NCBI RefSeq assembly: GCF_963921235.1
Contig: NC_086097.1
Location: 91,142,001-91,206,000, forward strand
DNA length: 64,000 nucleotides
Reading direction: 5' to 3'
Source of the DNA: Mobula hypostoma
Lineage: Eukaryota
Positions 11,241 through 63,231 of the stretch are shown in pieces. The notes beneath the pieces are model-generated. The model was given only the letters and a program-made list of their open reading frames with translations. It was not told the DNA's origin and made no database searches. Both the position numbers and the translations under genes were made by a program. Numbering within the stretch: the first letter of the stretch is position 1; each line of letters opens with the position of its first letter.

Positions 11241-11361
11241 TAGAGGCCTCACGATATCTACAGAGGCCACAGTAGACAGCCAGGAATCTAGTTACAAATG
11301 GCAGCAGCACTGTTGATATGTATGAATGTAATACAACAGTATGGAAAGCTTTGATTAGGAA

Positions 11362-12073
11362 TGTTGTGTATTTAATATTTCAATAATATTTGAGTAATCT
11401 TGCATATATATTGTTTAATTAAGCATTCTTGTTTGTTTAAATAATTAATTATGAGTTCTATGTACGAGAGGTAACTGATACGTTTGTGGCCTAAGGTAGA
11501 AGGAGTCAATTTTAGAAAACCTAACACATTTATTTTTCAACCTAGTCCCTTCCTACATGTACATACTTAATCCAGTGGTCGTGGAGCATACGGATCCCAT
11601 CTTTGTAGAAGTGGTCCACAGCAGGGGTGATTGATAAGTTCGTGGTACAACTCTCGTTACGTGCATGTGCAGTTCAACTCTTTGAGTGATTATGCAGAAA
11701 GGTTGAAGTTAATAATTCATCGTCTCTACTTTAGGCTACGAACTTATCAATCACCCCTGCTGTGGACCACTTCCTAGGGGTCCAAGATGCCGACTTCTAC
11801 AAAGAAGGGATCCATATGCTCCACGACGGCTGGACTAAGTGTGTAAATGTAGGAAAAATAGATGTGCTAGATTTTCTAAAATTGACTCCTTCTACCTTAG
11901 GCCATGAACGTATCAATCACCCCTCATATAAATCTGTGAATTGCATACTTCATCACGCTACTAAGTGATACCTGCCCGCCTCACTTAAAGTAAACACAAA
12001 GTTAAACCAGTATTTCAGACTCCCATGTCCTCCTTTGAATTAGTTCAATGTTTTGAAGTTACAAAGCATAACA
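11362..12073 (+). mobile_element. Solo LTR of the same family as the RBM25-carrying element, split by a mariner MITE
   Basis: tgttgtgtatttaatatt...tgttttgaagttacaaagcataaca is the reverse complement of LTR 60530-60776; TG...CA ends; no clear TSD. Confidence 0.8.
11465..11926. mobile_element. Mariner-derived foldback MITE
   Basis: TA target duplication (11463-64, 11927-28); long inverted arms; ORF 11762 reads FYKEGIHMLHDGWTKCVNVG, like a mariner transposase C-terminus. Confidence 0.85.
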
Positions 12074-12399
12074 CTGCCCAACCTGGATTCTCTTCTCCAT
12101 CCCATTCCCTCCCCACTCCGCACTGGGTAGAAAATATAAATTGACCTGCACCTCAACCATAGACCTGCATTTTTGAACTCTTGAGTCTTTTTTAAAAATT
12201 AATTTTCATGTTTTGAATAATTTAAAGAATAAAAAACCATTGAACAGCTTATTTTTATATTTTTTATTGTTTCCATGGAGTATGAAACCCAGAATTATGA
12301 TTATTTGGTGAAATTCAGTGGCATGATGGGAAAACATACTGTTTTGGCTTGAAGAATTAAATAAATTCAGCTTTATTTGTCACATCTACATCAAAACCA

Positions 12400-53755: not shown

Positions 53756-54992
53756 GCGCCTCTTCCTATAGATGCTGCTTGGCCTGCTGCGTTCACCAGC
53801 AACTTTGATGTGTATAAAGAACAGTGTCCTAATTTGAACCGGTACTGTTTTTTTAAATATGTATATTGATGCAATGCGTTATCTGGCGCTGCATGTATCT
53901 TCTCCATCTTATCAACTTTCGCCCACACTTTCAAAACTTTAAAATATTCAATTGCTACTTCAAATTCTGTAATCCAGGCAGTAAATACCTAGTGTATTAG
54001 CTGTCTCTCCACAATATACTGCAACTACAGGACCGTCAGAGGTGTGATGTGCACGACAGACAAAAGAATACACCTACATTTACATCCACCGGAAGTTTAA
54101 TCACTCCAAGGCTATTTCATCTGCTGACAGTGATAGCCGTGCCAATTTTGAATGCCAGCTGCATTGGGAAGTTTTCCCTTTTATGCCTTTGGTGTTTAAA
54201 TTTGATGTAAAATGGAACCCGATATAACTTGTTTCTTCCTTTACCAGTTTGACTTATTGGTGTCTAAAATCAGCAATGAGTACATATGTTAGGTGAGGTG
54301 GAAAAGTAGTTACGATCAGTGTTGACACTGTTTACTCTCAATATTGACAGGCTGCATAGGCAGCAGTTTCAACTCTGCACTAGTCAGCTATTTAATTTCT
54401 TATCCTCTCAATTCAGTACTTAGATTACTGACTTTCTTTGCTTTATTTATATTTTTCTTAAACTGTGAGCTGTGAAATGTCACTGTTCAAATGGATCAAT
54501 TTAATAACAGAGAATGTATATAGTATACAACCTGAAAATCTTACTCTTTACAGACATCCTCGAAACAAGAAATCCCAGAGAATGAATGTTAAAAACATCA
54601 GAACCCCAAAGACCCATCCCCCTCCTATGCACAAGCAGTGGCAGATGCATGGAATCCCCCCCCTCCATCCCCTACCATGCAAGAAATAACAAAAGCCCTC
54701 CAAAGAGATCTTGATTGAGAGTCCATCAAAAACTACACTCCGTAACCCAGCACTTGGGTAGCTCAGGCAGGCTCTCTCTGACCGGTGAGGGAGAGAGAGA
54801 GAGATCACTCCTGCAACAATGAAAGCAGAGACTCGCAACTCACTGTTCCAATGTTCCAATCTCCCACATCGCTCCTCCAAGCCCCTCGACTCAAGGACTT
54901 GTTCTAATGAGCACAATACTAATGTAATGCAAAGGTGAATGTTCTGATAGTCCCATTTGCCCACATCTGCCTTGTATCCTTCAAACACTTCC

Positions 54993-57900
54993 TGTTATGT
55001 TTTTTGTAACTTCAAAACATTTAACTATTTCAAAGGAAGAAGCATGAGGCCGAAATGTGTCTAACTTCATCTTTACTTTAACTGAGCCGTGTGATGCAGC
55101 ATGTAATTCACGTATTCAATCATAAGACCATAAGACAAAAGAGCAGAAGTCGGCCATTCGGCCCATCGAGTCTGCTCCGCCATTTTATCATGAGCTGATC
55201 CATTCTCCCATTTAGTCCCACTCCCCCGCCTTCTCACCATAACCTTTGATGCCCTGGCTACTCAGATACCTATTAATCTCTACCTTAAATACACCCAATG
55301 ACTTGGCCTCCACTGCTGCCCGTGGCAACAAATTCCACAGACTTACCACCTTCTGGCAAAAAAATTTCTTCGTATCTCTGTTCTGAATGGGCGCCCTTCA
55401 ATCCTTAAGTCATGCCCTCTCGTACTAGACTCCCCCATCATGGGCAACAACTTTGCCACTTTCACTCTGTCCATGCCTTTCAACATTCGAAATGTTTCTA
55501 TGAGGTTCCCTCTCATTCTTCTAAACTCCAAGAAATATAGTCCAAGAGTGGACAAACGTTCCTCATATGTTAACCCTCTCATTCCCGGAATCATTCTAGT
55601 GAATCTTCTCTGTACCCTTTCCAAAGTCAGCACATCCTTTCTTAAATAAGGAGACCAAAACTGCCCACAGTACTCCAAGTGAGGTCTCACCAGCGGCTTA
55701 TAGAGCCTCAACATCACATCCCTGCTCCTATACTCTATTCCTCTAGAAATGAATGCCAACATTGCATTCGCCTTCTTCACCACCAACTCAACCTGGAGGT
55801 TAACCTTAAGCATATCCTGTACGAGGACTCCCAAGTCCCGTTGCATCTCAGAACTTTGAATTCTCTCCCTATTTAAATAATAGTCTGCCGTTTATTTCTT
55901 CTGCCAAAGTGCATAACCATACACTTTCCAACATTGTATTTCATTTGCCACTTCTTTGCCCATTCTTGCAATCTATCCAAGTCTCTCTGCAGACTGTCCA
56001 TTTCCTCAGCACTACCGGCCCCTCCACCTATCTTTGTATCATCAGCAAACTTAGCCACAAAGCCATCTATTCCATAATCCAAATCGTTGATGTACAACGT
56101 AAAAAGAAGCGGCTCCAACACAGACCCCTATGGAATACCACTGGTAACTGGCAACCAACCAGAATAGGATCCCTTTATTCCCACTCTCTGTTTCCTGCCA
56201 ATCAGCCAATGCCCTATCCACGTATGTAACTTTCCCGTAATTCCATGGGCTCTTATCTTCTTAAGTAATCGCATGTGTGGCACCTCGTCAAAGGCCTTAT
56301 ATACAACATCCACTGCATCTCCCTTGTCTAGCCTACTTGTAATTTCCTCAAAAAATTGTAATAGGTTTGTCAGGCAGGATTTTCCTTCAAGGAAACCATG
56401 CTGAGTTCTGCCTATCTTGCCATATGCCTCCAGGTACTCTGTAACCTCATCCCCGACAATCGACTCCAACAACGTCCCAACCACCGATGTCAAGCTAACA
56501 GGTCTGTAATTTCCTTTTTGCTTCCTTGACCCCTTCTTAAATAGCGGAATGACATTTGCAATCTTCCAGTCCTCCAGAAACATGCCAGAGTCTATCAACT
56601 TTTGAAAGATCATCGCTAATGCCTCCGCAATCTCCACAGCTACTTCCTTCAGGACACGAGGGTGCATTCCATCTGGTCCGGGAAATTTATCTACCTTTAG
56701 ACTATTCAGCTTCCTGAGTACTTTCTCTGTCATAATTGTGACGGCGCACACTTCTCTTCCCTGTCACCCTTGAGTGTCGGTATACTGCTGATGTCTTCCT
56801 CAGTGAAGACTGATGCAGAATACTCGTTCAATTCCTCCGCCATCTCCTTATCTCCCATTACAATTTCTCCAGCATCATTTTCTATCAGTCCTATATCTAC
56901 TCTCACCTGTCTTTTACTCTTTATATACTTGAAATAGCTTTTAGTATCCTCTTTGATATTATTTGCTAGCTTCCTTTCATAGTTTATCTTTTCCCTCTTA
57001 ATGACCTTCTTAGTTTCCTTTTGGAAGCTTTTCAAAACTTCCCAATCCTCTGTCTTCCCACTAATTTTTGCTTCCTTGTATGCCCTCTCCTTTGCTTTAA
57101 CTTTGACTTTGACATCTCTTGTCAGCCACGGTTGCATCCTTTTACCATTCAAAAATGTCTTCTTTTTTGGAATATACCTGTCTTGCACCTTCCTCACTTC
57201 TCGCATAAACTCCAGCCACTGCTGCTCTGCCGTCCTTCCTCCCAGTGTCCCTTGCCAGTCATCTTTGGCCAGTTCCTCTCTCATGCCACTGTAATTTCCT
57301 TTACTCCACTGAAGTACCAACACATCGGATTTTGGCTTCTCTTTTTCAAATTTCACAGTGAACTCAGTCATGTTATGATCACTGCCTCCTAAGGGTTCCT
57401 TCATCTTAATCTCTCTAATCACGTCCGGTTCATTACACAATACCCAGTCCAGTACAGCCAATCCCCTAGTGGGCTCAACAACAAGCTGTTCTAAAAACCC
57501 ATCTCGCAGATATTCTACAAATTCTCTCTCTTCAGATCCAGAGCCGACCTGATTTTTCCAATCCACTCGCATGTTAAATTCCCCCACAATTATCATAACA
57601 CTGCCCTTCTGACAAGCCTTTCCTATTTCCTGCTGTAATTTGTAGTCCACATCACTGCAGCTGTTTGGAGGCCTGTATATAACTGCTATCAGGGTCCTTT
57701 TACCCCTGCAATTTCTTATCTCAACCCATAAAGTTTCTGCACCTTCCGATCCTATGTCACCTTTCTAATGATTTAATATCATTTCTTACCAATAAAGCCA
57801 CACCTCCCCCTCTGCCTACCTTCCTATCCTTCCGATACACCGTGTATCCTTGGACGTTCAGCTCCCAGAGACATGCATCCTTTAGCCACGTCTCAGTGAT

Positions 57901-58142
57901 GGCCACAATATCATACCTGCCAATCTGTAGCTGTACAACAAGATCATCCACCTTATTCCTTATGCTGCGTGCATTTAAGTATAACTCCTTAACACCAGAA
58001 TTTTGTACTTTTTGCTTTGATTGCACTGCAACTTTATTGCACTGCAACTCATCATCTACCCCATTAGAAATTATTTAAACAAACAAGAATGTTTAATCAA
58101 CAGATATATAGACAAGATTACTCAAATATTAAATACACAACA
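54993..58142 (-). repeat. 3' LTR (pieces ~54993-55123 and ~58051-58142) split by a CR1 insertion
   Basis: Both pieces align with 60530-60776; atcat duplicated at 55119-55123 and 58051-58055. Confidence 0.85.
55124..58050 (-). mobile_element. Near-complete CR1 ORF2 (APE endonuclease and RT), few frameshifts
   Basis: ORFs 57757-58047 (LYLNARSIRNK, ITETWL), 56730-57650, 56128-56751, 55873-56121 (KFADDTK) and 55343-55846; (cataagac)n tail. Confidence 0.95.
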
Positions 58143-58254
58143 CACCTCCCTGTTTATCTATAACTCCAACTCAATAGAGAATGCATCTCAACTTTATACA
58201 CAATGTACAACAAATATACAGGCATTCACAGCATAGTTAATTTTAAATTGTCCA

Positions 58255-58445
58255 TTTCAGGCCTAATGATTTAACTGCTGTGGAGGATTTCTTACTCATG
58301 TGGAATAAAGTCTTTCCTGACAAGGGGGATCACTTTGCTTGTCAGGTGAGACTCACAGTTGTGAAACAATTTCGGTGTCTGGGGCCCCCTGCGTGGTGAT
58401 TGCAGGAGTTGACTCTGAGACTGCAGAGAATGGTTCTGACAGCTT
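58255..58445 (-). pseudogene. Gypsy Pol C-terminal tail remnant
   Basis: LSEPFSAVSESTP...QERLYST*VRNPPQQLNH, resembling the RRYPxRxRxPPxRL end of Gypsy Pol; precedes the PPT. Confidence 0.65.
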
Positions 58446-59125
58446 TCTTCTCCTCTTCTCAGCTTTCTCTCTCTTTATCCCACTTTTTTCTTTCTCACAT
58501 TCCTTCTCTCTTTCATGCTCATCTTCTTTCTCTTTGTCTCTTCTTTTCAGCTTCTTGTACTTCCTTTTCTTCCTTCTCGGATGTGCATCTTGATCTTGGG
58601 AAGATGCATTTAGTTCACTGGAGTATTCTGTTATTAATCCTTCTACTGCTCCCTTTACCATCTGATCTCTCCTCTTGGTTTCCTCAGCCACAACAAAATC
58701 TGATGAATCCTCTGTTTCTGTGTCTCCATTGATTCCTTTCTTATTGGCCTTCCATTCATCCAGCTAGGCTTTGGCCTTTGCACCTAATTTTACAAGCAGC
58801 TTTTTATCTCTCATGTGATGTTCATGAAATAACCTTAAATCACACAGAGTAGATTCTGGTTCTTTATACTCACAAAAGTCAAATGCTTGCAACTTTCTTG
58901 AAGCTCCTTTATCTTTCCTCCAGTTTAAAACCATGCCAGAGTTTGCAAGAAATTTGCCGATTAACATATCAGAAGCTTTCTCAGGTATGTTGCCGATGAA
59001 AACAGTTGTAGTCAGACCACTGCTTTCATTACTTTCACAATTCCTCTGAGCAACATGGTCCTCCCTTGATCCAATATGCCAATATGCTTTCCAATCAGAG
59101 GCATAGAGGTTAGCAACAACAGACC
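58446..59125 (-). pseudogene. RBM25: Processed (intronless) RNA-binding protein 25 fragment: RRM and start of the Arg/Glu-rich region
   Basis: GKHIG.SREDH...GLTTTVFIGNIPEKASDMLIGKFLANSG...KLQAFDFCEYKEPESTL...KKLLVKLGAKAKA*LDEWKA...EETKRRDQMVKGAVEGLITEYSSELNA...HPRRKK matches recalled RBM25; one in-frame stop (58764-58766) and an 8-bp duplication ccaatatg (59071-59086). Confidence 0.92.
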
Positions 59126-59149
59126 ATGGTTCATGGTGAACAGCATGGA

Positions 59150-59480
59150 GACAGTTGCCGCATCATCCAGATACCTTTCTTAATTCCCTTTTAATTGACT
59201 CAATTAACAATTCAATGTGGCACGCAACTGATGGATAGATTTCCAATCATGTTGTAGCTGTCCCAGCCAATCATGGCTCTGCAATGCTGGTCCTCTAGTT
59301 TTTACCCCCTGCAAGCTCAATAGGTCCTTTTGGTTGCTGTATTTCACTGTTTCTCCAATATATGTTCTTAATTAGATATCTGCAGGCCTCACTTCAGCAC
59401 CTTTCAAATGCCATTCAACTCATTTTGTCGAATGACTTCCATTTTAATTAATTTGCTGTTCACTTCTGGTGTAAGCCATT
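59150..59480 (-). pseudogene. Gypsy aspartic protease remnant lacking the catalytic DTG
   Basis: WLTPEVNSKLIKME|VIRQ (expected LDTG absent) ... GPALQSHDWLGQLQHDW. Confidence 0.65.
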
Positions 59481-59565
59481 CTGTTTGTCTATTGTTAGAT
59501 TTCACATTGTTAGTCTCTAGGGTACCCAGTCATGCTTATTAGATTTTTCATCAACAGCATGCGGA

Positions 59566-60338
59566 TTAGTGCTCTTTTTTAAACTGCAGCTTGACTTTTT
59601 TAGCTTTTTCTCTTCGCTGTGCAGTCCATTTATTTTTGTCTGCCCGACATACTCTTTGTACGTATCCTACTTTGTTACATTTTCTGCAAGCTTCGCCTTT
59701 AAACCTGTATTGGTCTGGTGAATGTGAGCCCCTGCCACAGTGGTAACACAATTTGTTTGATCAGACCGGTTTCCATATGGACGTTGCAATTTTGTTCACC
59801 CTCATTTCCACTCCTGACCACAACTCAATTGTGTCTCTATCTACTGTTTCCATTGATTCAGCAATTTCAACTGCTCTCATAAATGTAAGTTGTGCTTTAG
59901 TTAGGAGCCATTTTTGAATGCTTCCTTGTAAGATTCCACAAACTAAATGATCTCTCAATGCATCATTAGGCCCATCACTGAACTGACAATGCTCAGACAA
60001 TCTCTTCAATTCAGCCACACATGCTGAAATGGACTTCTCTTCCTTTTGATTCCACTTATGATATCTAAAACATTCTGTAATCAACAATGGCTTTGGTTCT
60101 AAATGTTCCTGCATTACTTTCACAATAGCAGCAAAGCTCATTTCCGCTGGTTTGGTTCGAGCAATCAAACTTCGAAGCAAACTGTATGCTCATCCACCAA
60201 TTACATTCAGCAAAACTGGTACTCGTTTCTCAATGGTATTTCATTTGCTTCAAAATACTATTCAATTGTTGCAGTATACATGAGCCAGTTACCGATGGAG
60301 TAATCGGATATGTCAATCCTTCCGATGAAACCAGCCAT
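59566..60338 (-). pseudogene. Gypsy gag (degenerate, two zinc knuckles)
   Basis: MAGFIGRID start; ORF 59761-60180 (ELKRLSEHCQF...LRDHLVCGI); CYHCGRGSH...CRKCNKVG knuckles. Confidence 0.88.
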
Positions 60339-60529
60339 TTCTGCTCCTTTTTTTAATAAATATTAAACCCGGTACTCACTGTATATGAATTCTGCTGTTT
60401 TCTGTCTTTCATTTTAAACTTGATCATGTCTGCACATACTGCGCTATGTTTTTACTCGCCATTCCTCGCTGCACTTTAACGGATCAGTAGCCATCTTGGG
60501 TTCATTTTTTAAAAATACCTCATTGCCAA

Positions 60530-60776
60530 TGTTATGTTTTGTAACTTCAAAACATTAAACTAATTCCAAGGAAGACATGGGAGTCCGAAATGTGAGTCTA
60601 ACTTTGTGTTTACTTTAAGCAAAGCGAGCACGTATCACGTGGCAGTGAGATGACATATGTAATTCATATATTTATACATTTAACACATAATGAATTATTT
60701 AAATCAAAAGACTGCTCAATCTATATACACACAAACAAGATTATTCAAATATTGCTGTAATATTAAATACAGAACA
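60530..60776 (-). repeat. 5' LTR (247 bp)
   Basis: tgttatg...agaaca, adjacent to the PBS-like sequence; homologous to the 3' LTR and to the solo LTR at 11362-12073. Confidence 0.88.
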
Positions 60777-61699
60777 TTTCCTAACATGTTCTCATTCAAA
60801 TGTCTTGGAAATGTTAGCGTACCTGCCTTAGTCACTATCTCAGACAGCTCATTCCATATACATACAAACCACTGCATGAAAAGGTTGCTTTATGCTTCCT
60901 TATAAATCTTTCACCTCTCACCTTAAACCTATGACCTCTAGTTTTTACTTATCCTTCCCTGGGTAATCTCAATTGCCAACTCGGCTAAGATCAGCTACCA
61001 GCTATCAAAATTAACTTCTGGGACATTCCTGACCCATGTGGCTCCAACTTCACATATATTTTGACCCTAATGGGTTGCCATACTAAACGTAGTGATGTAA
61101 TATGAGAGGGCATTCTGGGAAGAAGACTTACAAGTAAAATAACTTACGCACATTTTGTTTCCTCTTTTGTGTGTTATTTATGTCCATCAGGCTTCCCAGT
61201 ACCACAAGCATTGGCTCAAAGGCCCCGCCAAGCGGTCAGCTGAGCTCAGTGCAGAGGTAGGAGTTTGTGTGTATAGATTCACATAGTACAGAAATAAATC
61301 CTTTGGCTCACCCAGTCAATATTTACACTAATCCCCATTTGCCCTCCCTGAAATTTCATCACCTTTCCTCATATTTTACAACTCATCTACACACTAGGGA
61401 CAATTTACTGTGACCAAATAACCTATCAATCAGCAAAAGCTATTTGGTATGTTAATTGGCCACAGAGCGCTTGGAGGAAATGCAACCCACCAGAGGTCAG
61501 GCCTGAACCCAGATTATTGGAGATATGAAGCAGCAGTCCTATCAGCTCCCACTAGCAAAATGTATCAATCAAAAATGAAAAATAGTTGAGTTATTTTGTG
61601 TTGGGACAGCATCATAAACTGGATGCATTACCTTTTGTTGTGTAAGCATTGCCAGGTATCACTATAAATTAATCGATAACAGCTGCAAGTGGAACTGAA

Positions 61700-62156: not shown

Positions 62157-63231
62157 CATAGAAACATAGAAACATAGAAACATAGAAAATAGGTGCAGGA
62201 GTAGGCCATTCGGCCCTTCGAGCCTGCACCGCCATTTATTATGATCATGGCTGATCATCCAACTCAGAACCCAGCCTTCCCTCCATACCCCCTGACCCCT
62301 GTAGCCACAAGGGCCATATCTAACTTCCTTTTAAACATAGCTAATGAATTGGCCTCAACAGTTTGCTGTGGCAGAGAATTCCACAGATTCACCACTCTCT
62401 GTGTGAAGAAGTTTTTCCTAACCTCGGTCCTAAAAGGCTTCCCCTCTATCCTCAAACTGTGACCCCTCGTTCTAGACCTCCCCAACATCGGGAACAATCT
62501 TCCCGCATCTAGCCTGTCCAATCCCTTTAGGATCTTATACGTTTCAATCAGATCCCCCCTCAATCTTCTAAATTCCAACGAGTACAAGCCCAGTTCATCC
62601 AGTCTTTCTTCATATGAAAGACCTGCCATCCCAGGAATCAATCTGGTGAACCTGCTTTGTACTCCCTCTATGGCAAGGATGTCTTTCCTCAGATTAGGGG
62701 ACCAAAACTGCACACAATACTCCAGGTGTGGTCTCACCAAGGCCTTGTACAACTGCAGTAGTACCTCCCTGCTCCTGTACTCGAATCCTCTCGCTATAAA
62801 TGCCAGCATACCATTCGCCTTTTTCACCGCCTGCTGTACCTGCATGCCCACTTTCAATGACTGGTGTATAGTGACACCCAGGTCTCGTTGCACCTCCCCT
62901 TTTCCTAATCGGCCACCATTCAGATAATAATCTGTTTTCCTATTTTTGCCACCAAAGTGGATAACTTCACATTTATCCACATTAAATTGCATCTGCCATG
63001 AGTTTGCCCACTCACCCAACCTATCCAAGTCACCCTGCATCCTCTTAGCATCCTCCTCACTGCTAACACTGCCACCCAGCTTTGTGTCATCCGCAAACTT
63101 GGAGATGCTGCATTTAATTCCCTCATCCAAGTCATTAATATATATTGTAAACAACTGGGGTCCCAGCACTGAGCCTTGCGGTACCCCACTAGTCACTGCC
63201 TGCCATTCTGAAAAGGTCCCGTTTATTCCCA
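62157..63231 (-). mobile_element. Young 5'-truncated CR1 LINE with an uninterrupted RT C-terminal ORF
   Basis: ORF 62264-63286 VTSGVPQGSVLGPQLFTIYINDL...KFADDTKL...NLWNSLP; perfect (catagaaa)4 tail. Confidence 0.95.

Follow-up and report, generated by a model that had tools for sequence, protein, structure and literature searches.

Acutely transforming retroviruses possess a helper-dependent genome in which a host cDNA is fused in frame to gag. A structure comparable to theirs is present in a 64,000-nucleotide stretch of the genome of Mobula hypostoma (contig NC_086097.1, positions 91,142,001 to 91,206,000 of the forward strand; the whole of this stretch is termed 'the window', and positions below refer to it). 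On the minus strand of the window lies an element that we consider, with a probability of roughly 0.85, to belong, as a copy now decayed, to an amplified Gypsy family in which reverse transcriptase (RT), RNase H and integrase (IN) were replaced by a spliced piece of RBM25 mRNA, likely through one double template switch; the subsequent copying likely relied on the enzymes of Pol-bearing sister elements. The analogy with oncogene transduction, proposed in an earlier note on this DNA, holds for the structure (an in-frame gag fusion and a presumed helper dependence) and fails for the function, given that the family has evolved neutrally: unlike the transforming retroviruses, it displays no env, no infection, and no evidence of an advantage conferred by the host piece.

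Tan et al. (2016, PMC5131818) described retrocopies in animals that are mediated by elements with long terminal repeats (LTRs), with a median of 6 bp of microsimilarity, and already noted their secondary retroposition. As is the case here, those retrocopies contain partial spliced mRNA in place of internal open reading frames (ORFs), display microsimilarity at both ends, lack both poly(A) and target-site duplications (TSDs), are often in frame, and undergo non-autonomous rounds; in the portions of that report available to us, however, the copies are young and found at one insertion site or a few, and sharks are not mentioned, whereas the present family comprises about 2,000 old copies, apparently from one capture, together with deletion subfamilies. 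The maize element Bs1 (PMC5131818, PMC13317346) is likewise an LTR element that harbors host exons, was re-mobilized and has switch points in common; as far as the accessible text of those reports extends, it draws upon three donor genes, exists in 1-5 copies and forms a new chimeric gene, whereas here a single donor gene in a vertebrate has given rise to thousands of copies that decay neutrally. Crocodilian ERV4 elements that carry KIT-ligand and nectin3 mRNA (Chong et al. 2014, PMC4299795) similarly represent an ancient vertebrate LTR lineage with several copies and sharing between species, but in the excerpts of that study they are retroviral, number 9 and 6 copies, retain Pol and are under purifying selection, while the present elements are of the Gypsy type, have lost Pol and display no visible selection. 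In pepper, host NLR coding sequence has been multiplied within mostly non-autonomous LTR elements (Kim et al. 2017, PMC5664825), much as RBM25 has been here, although the available sections describe 86-123 genes per genome, several donors and purifying selection, as opposed to a single donor and neutral evolution.

The mechanism itself has already been published (Tan et al. 2016); what is new is the scale of the family and its nested forms, as against 1-9 copies per capture in the compared cases, insofar as the accessible text of those reports gives them. As the family shows, a single LTR-mediated capture can make a high-copy vertebrate repeat out of a conserved block of host exons, exceeding the single-capture cases compared by two to three orders of magnitude. 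No paper on this family was found in a literature search that lay outside repeat databases and most subscription journals, and the main text of the Vertebrate Genomes Project Phase I preprint (PMC13320880), in its accessible portion, does not mention RBM25 and describes a retrocopy filter that discards repeat-masked candidates.

Replacement of Pol by spliced RBM25 mRNA

Every part that had been assigned to the element from sequence alone was located. It opens with a 5' LTR of 247 nt with TG...CA ends (60530..60776) and a primer binding site (PBS) that reads tggcaatgagg (60518..60528). The description of that site as CpG-decayed proved correct: the site in copy L120 reads TGGCGACGAGGA, which matches host tRNA-Ser(GCT) at its 3' end, and the tRNA genes ending in ATCCTCGTCG were Ser(GCT) in 4 of 4 examined. 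There follow gag (59570..60338, with an ATG at 60338), which comprises the capsid and zinc-knuckle region and is interrupted by stops and frameshifts, and a protease (PR) remnant with the PR-RT spacer (59163..59569), from which the catalytic motif has been deleted, the polyprotein alignment halting at residue 302 of P0175 and restarting at 319. Homology to Gag-protease extends to about 59165. The captured RBM25 segment (58443..59162) is followed by the C-terminal tail of Pol (58263..58442, ending at the stop codon at 58263), a polypurine tract (PPT; 58143..58158) and a 3' LTR in two parts (58053..58142 and, with the CA terminus, 54993..55123). The whole is enclosed by a 5-bp TSD, GGAAA (60777..60781) and GGAAG (54988..54992), with the single mismatch originally reported. 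The direct LTR pair with TG...CA ends, the short TSD, the PBS matching a host tRNA and the PPT place the element in Ty3/Gypsy; no RT, RNase H or IN was found in the window copy.

The host RBM25 gene was located with a C-terminal query at G000:C1:99.79-99.84 Mb, 8.6 Mb from the window element, and was found only once; its exons, read from the splice sites, form an open frame, and its closest named relative is a shark protein (89%). Three loci that a PWI family search had offered as RBM25 were rejected, having no match to it. The captured piece, which includes the RRM, is 85.8% identical to the host gene; its identity to the RBM25 proteins of vertebrates is about 60%, and it also matches RRM structures. 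Its length, originally estimated at ~680 bp, is 720 nt with both microhomologies counted, and it corresponds to the last 10 nt of exon 2, a 48-nt cassette exon, exons 3, 4, 5 and 6, part of exon 8, and the start of exon 9, which together extend over ~29 kb in the gene. Five host junctions are intact in the window segment (exon 2/cassette, 3/4, 4/5, 5/6 and 8/9), that between the cassette and exon 3 having been lost to an 18-nt deletion, and the segment is thus intronless, as had been claimed, and not collinear with any single exon. The joining of exons over ~29 kb, cassette included, establishes an origin from spliced mRNA. Each of 50 fetched loci (48 distinct) has exons 3, 5 and 6 in succession, and 48 have a listed match to exon 4 as well. 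The earlier statement that the junctions carry neither poly(A) nor TSD was also upheld: the longest run of A between 59200 and 58300 is 6, and no TSD flanking the RBM25 piece is visible at either junction. In addition to the 18-nt deletion, the piece in the window copy carries one in-frame stop, a frameshift, and a deletion of exon 7 and much of exon 8.

The cassette exon lies in the host at G000:C1:99832633-99832586 on the minus strand (L061, VSMLYTMNRCPTEGKQ). Its 48 nt preserve the frame, for which reason a reading as a poison exon was dropped, and the same peptide in RefSeq isoforms of Heptranchias and in the public protein P0201 demonstrates that the exon is real. It is absent from the bony-vertebrate RBM25 sequences compared and, on that comparison, may be specific to cartilaginous fishes. 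The repeat family thus preserves a record of an old splice isoform, as well as of the long-to-short steps by which non-autonomous elements shrink. Matches to the family's LTR also occur at G000:C1:99876647-99876891 and 99906403-99906635, upstream of the host gene's first coding exon by 36 and 66 kb.

Pol-bearing sisters and switch points

Pol-bearing sisters with the same LTR, gag and tail were found in longer fetches, and 8 of 30 RT-bearing loci align to the element's gag-protease region. Two of the sisters, L115 and L118, possess a near-complete Pol in the order Gag-PR-RT-RNase H-IN, collinear with polyprotein P0176 (PF00078, PF17919/17917, PF17921, PF00665). The sisters match the window element as far as 59160-59165, continue from there into RT, and rejoin it at ~58444, such that ~2.5 kb of Pol has been precisely replaced between two microhomologies.

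On the 5' side (59156..59162) the sisters read GATGATGCCACAGCAGTGTTC, the host mRNA CCTGCCACAACTGTCTCC and the chimeras GATGATGCCACAACTGTCTCC, with a shared 7-nt microhomology to host exon 2, TGCCACA, which is exact in 7 of 15 Pol-bearing loci and has decayed to TGCGGCA in the window copy. The resulting fusion is in frame with Gag-protease (DDA-TTVSM), and DDATTVSM is retained in 27 of 40 copies picked by their junction (see below). On the 3' side (58443..58453) a 10-nt microhomology, GGAGAAGAAA, is shared by host exon 9 and the sisters' Pol C-terminal tail, and the RBM25 frame, as read from the sequences, enters a shifted frame of that tail. In random pairs, matches of at least 7 nt and at least 10 nt have probabilities of 7e-4 and 1.5e-5. 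The locus combines intron loss, replacement rather than interruption of internal ORFs, microsimilarity at both ends, and the absence of poly(A) and of a TSD of its own, all of which are features of LTR-mediated retrocopies.

Copy number, forms and age

The proposal that the chimera belongs to an amplified, non-autonomous family that spread an RRM through the genome was supported. A DNA search returned 3,192 candidates. Scoring covered 40 of these, and all 29 non-self loci fetched pass from RBM25 into Gypsy sequence. A 27-nt pattern across the chimeric 5' junction, searched with up to 2 mismatches, occurs at 691 genomic sites (reversed control, 0), and the corresponding Pol-type junction at 1,709 sites, or 2.5 times as often. 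Correction for decay yields estimates of 1,843 and 1,969 chimeric copies (~2,000). Of these, 87 were inspected: 47 picked by BLAST, and 40 picked by nothing but the junction, 20 of them with an exact match and 20 with one mismatch, being the first ones listed. In all 40 junction-picked loci the RBM25 sequence reaches mRNA position 458 or beyond; these loci comprise 14 short forms (exon 6 joined to the tail), 7 medium, 5 long and 14 that fell into no form, with L123 borderline long.

Both ends could be placed in 13 copies (of up to 61 loci), which occupy 13 distinct targets; 4 display perfect 5-bp TSDs and 3 have one mismatch, so that at most one mismatch was found in 7 of 13 copies, as compared to 3.2% in a mismatched-pair control. 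The copies have the marks of a non-autonomous LTR family: they are dispersed, are built alike, differ in their TSDs, and share their LTR with an autonomous partner.

The copies are 86-87% identical to host RBM25 and 83% identical to one another, and LTR pairs diverge by a mean of 18.4% (6 copies; K 0.216), the two LTR pieces of the window copy by 22% and 15%. A gag-protease tree built from 63 chimeric rows (of 87) and 13 Pol-bearing ones (of 19), each of at least 750 nt and with the bootstrap unsettled, is star-like, with tips of similar length for chimeric and Pol-bearing copies. One group of 21 chimeric rows (support 86/86) contains medium and short forms, and the long forms lie in the basal polytomy. 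The insertion also occurs in two related organisms: contigs of organism B (X5) and organism C (X9) cross the boundary between the window copy's LTR and its flank (1/339 and 19/321 differences) as well as the gag-RBM25 junction, and the insertion consequently predates a split of ~6%.

The presence of ~2,000 RBM25-like loci can mislead read mapping, the counting of retrocopies and the annotation of genes. Should the copies enter a germline small-RNA pathway, the host RBM25 mRNA, which is 86% identical to them, could be targeted.

Selection and expression

Decay of the copies is neutral, and nothing points to selection on the RRM. Singleton variants across 193 codons gave pN/pS values of 0.98 for transitions and 1.10 for transversions; none of the 47 BLAST-picked copies contains an open frame, and the longest open frame across the junction in the 40 junction-picked copies is 191 codons. 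Variants common to 10-43 of the 87 copies comprise 36 non-synonymous and 13 synonymous changes, and neither gag nor RBM25 is enriched for third-position changes, the three codon positions varying equally. An open frame under purifying selection, the mark of a functional transduced gene, was found in none of the 87 copies, of ~2,000. Contigs from run X20, whose RNA nature is a guess, contain only short, diverged pieces, and indicate neither transcription nor silence. Runs of organisms E, F and G, with small shares, do not enter the analysis.

The differences from the host that a majority of copies share are 21 synonymous and 1-3 non-synonymous, and are unpolarized. Change along the host branch over the time of copy decay is sufficient for the 21 (17.8 expected, P=0.25), and this places the capture shortly before the burst. 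A synonymous excess on the stem, apparent in the BLAST-picked sample, was gone in the junction-picked sample (P=0.25). At residues that differ between the host and Heptranchias, the copies side with the host at 6 and with Heptranchias at a seventh; this last, segment codon 193, is the one non-synonymous site that a majority of copies share, and is not polarizable because another relative, P0201, carries the host residue.

Origin of the chimera and alternative explanations

In the history that we favor, a cassette-containing isoform of RBM25 mRNA would have been co-packaged into a particle, where RT would have switched template at GGAGAAGAAA, leaving the Pol tail for exon 9, and again at TGCCACA, passing from exon 2 back into the PR-RT spacer. 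The product, which would have retained both LTRs, the PBS and the PPT, would then have integrated normally and been mobilized in trans to ~2,000 copies, as part of one burst with the Pol-bearing elements. Repeated deletion of the purine-rich exons 7-9, perhaps by way of their purine repeats, would have given rise to the medium and short forms, followed by the neutral decay of all sampled copies and, in the window copy, by the later insertion of a CR1 element. Formation of the chimera during reverse transcription and its integration as a unit, both suggested in the earlier note, are supported by these data, with the qualification that the window locus represents a later copy of an amplified master rather than the capture event. 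The RBM25 piece is most likely a passenger.

Several observations weigh against parts of this history. Co-packaging and mobilization in trans are steps that we infer and did not observe. Of the 15 Pol-bearing loci, no more than 2 have the 3' motif in its exact form, and in the rest it is decayed or deleted; it lies in purine-rich sequence, where matches arise by chance more often than the random estimate allows, so that the value of 1.5e-5 overstates its significance. Six of the 13 copies with both ends placed display 2-4 mismatches in their TSDs. The chimeric copies do not form one clade in the gag-protease tree, on which the chimeric label takes 9 changes (bootstrap unsettled); the tree thus neither demonstrates nor excludes a single origin, and the case for one is made by the shared junctions. 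Finally, the master lineage was too short for selection on the master to be detectable, and power on the stem is low.

In a different view, which we regard as unlikely, the capture was retained because it was useful: a Gag-protease-RBM25 polyprotein would be translated, and the protease would free an RRM protein in particles, where it might aid RNA packaging, splicing or export and so drive amplification. The family would then constitute a helper-dependent 'Gag-protease-RRM' parasite, in which a captured splicing-factor domain promotes its own packaging or RNA processing; doubtful as such a parasite is, it would account for both the thousands of copies and the trimming of the RE/RD tail with the RRM spared. 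The in-frame 5' fusion preserved as DDATTVSM in 27 of 40 junction-picked copies and its location near the expected start of RT are in keeping with that view, but an in-frame junction arises by chance one time in three. At least 80% of the RRM is kept in 36 of the 40 junction-picked loci while the RE/RD-rich 3' part is deleted, a pattern that purine repeats resembling the 3' switch motif also explain. The 21 synonymous against 1-3 non-synonymous majority-shared differences would likewise suggest constraint, were it not that the host branch alone can account for the former; the 36:13 ratio among variants in 10-43 of the 87 copies, the absence of third-position enrichment in RBM25 or gag, and the 2.5-fold greater frequency of the Pol-type junction all argue in the opposite direction.

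The double template switch may also be weighed against events at the level of DNA, in which a processed pseudogene of RBM25 made by a LINE (long interspersed nuclear element) entered a Gypsy copy, or DNA recombination joined the two, with Pol being deleted before amplification. LINEs are abundant here, and homology-directed recombination of DNA could leave microhomology as well; the piece, however, is internal (exons 2-9), lies in the sense orientation, and lacks poly(A), an mRNA 3' end and a junction TSD, and the exact replacement of ~2.5 kb of Pol between two microhomologies corresponds to the template-switch signature in the available text of Tan et al. (2016, PMC5131818). Such an origin is very improbable and is already largely refuted. 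That the copies go back to only a few insertions, multiplied by segmental duplication or by redundancy in the assembly, has a negligible probability: one near-identical pair, L003 and L004 on C96, might be so explained, but the copies lie on many contigs with 83% mutual identity, the host gene was found only once, and the distinct TSDs and target sites refute a common insertion. The two members of that pair (G000:C96:22.42 Mb and 23.60 Mb) lie 1.2 Mb apart in opposite orientation, L003 with a tandem duplication of the junction region, and are likely a recent segmental duplication.

Later insertion and affinities of the element

The interval 54993..60776 was correctly delimited at its ends as one element in the earlier note, but half of it consists of a 2.9-kb LINE (55124..58052, minus strand), unmentioned there, which splits the 3' LTR and is a later insertion outside the chimera proper. 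This LINE, which lies in the element's orientation, possesses a near-complete ORF2 with an endonuclease (PF14529) and an RT (PF00078), and ends in a short-repeat 3' tail; we take it to be of the CR1 type from its ORF2 and tail pattern. A diverged second copy of its 3' end lies on the same strand near 62170-62420. Other LTR pieces of the same Gypsy family occur in the window at 11355-11464 and 11927-12076, with 77-89% identity, on the opposite strand and apparently ~460 nt apart.

A Pfam search returned 0 families for 4 of 6 proteins and did not recognize the decayed RRM and gag pieces, which were identified by means of PDB and protein searches. The gag piece at 59764-60189 displays 66-71% amino acid identity to single-ORF Gypsy polyproteins (P0171-P0178), several of them from teleosts. 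The element may belong to the Mag clade, with which two hints are compatible, namely the single gag-pol ORF of its K02A2.6-like relatives and its Ser PBS with a 5-bp TSD. The latter combination is reported for Mag elements in the accessible part of PMC3286476.

Three Pol-bearing sisters (L099, L104 and L108) apparently have in common an internal deletion, through which early integrase sequence meets the chimera's Pol-tail point; this suggests a further deletion subfamily and a switch hot spot. The gag identity to teleost polyproteins is high for the shark-teleost split, and horizontal transfer among aquatic hosts is therefore possible, as judged from sequence similarity.

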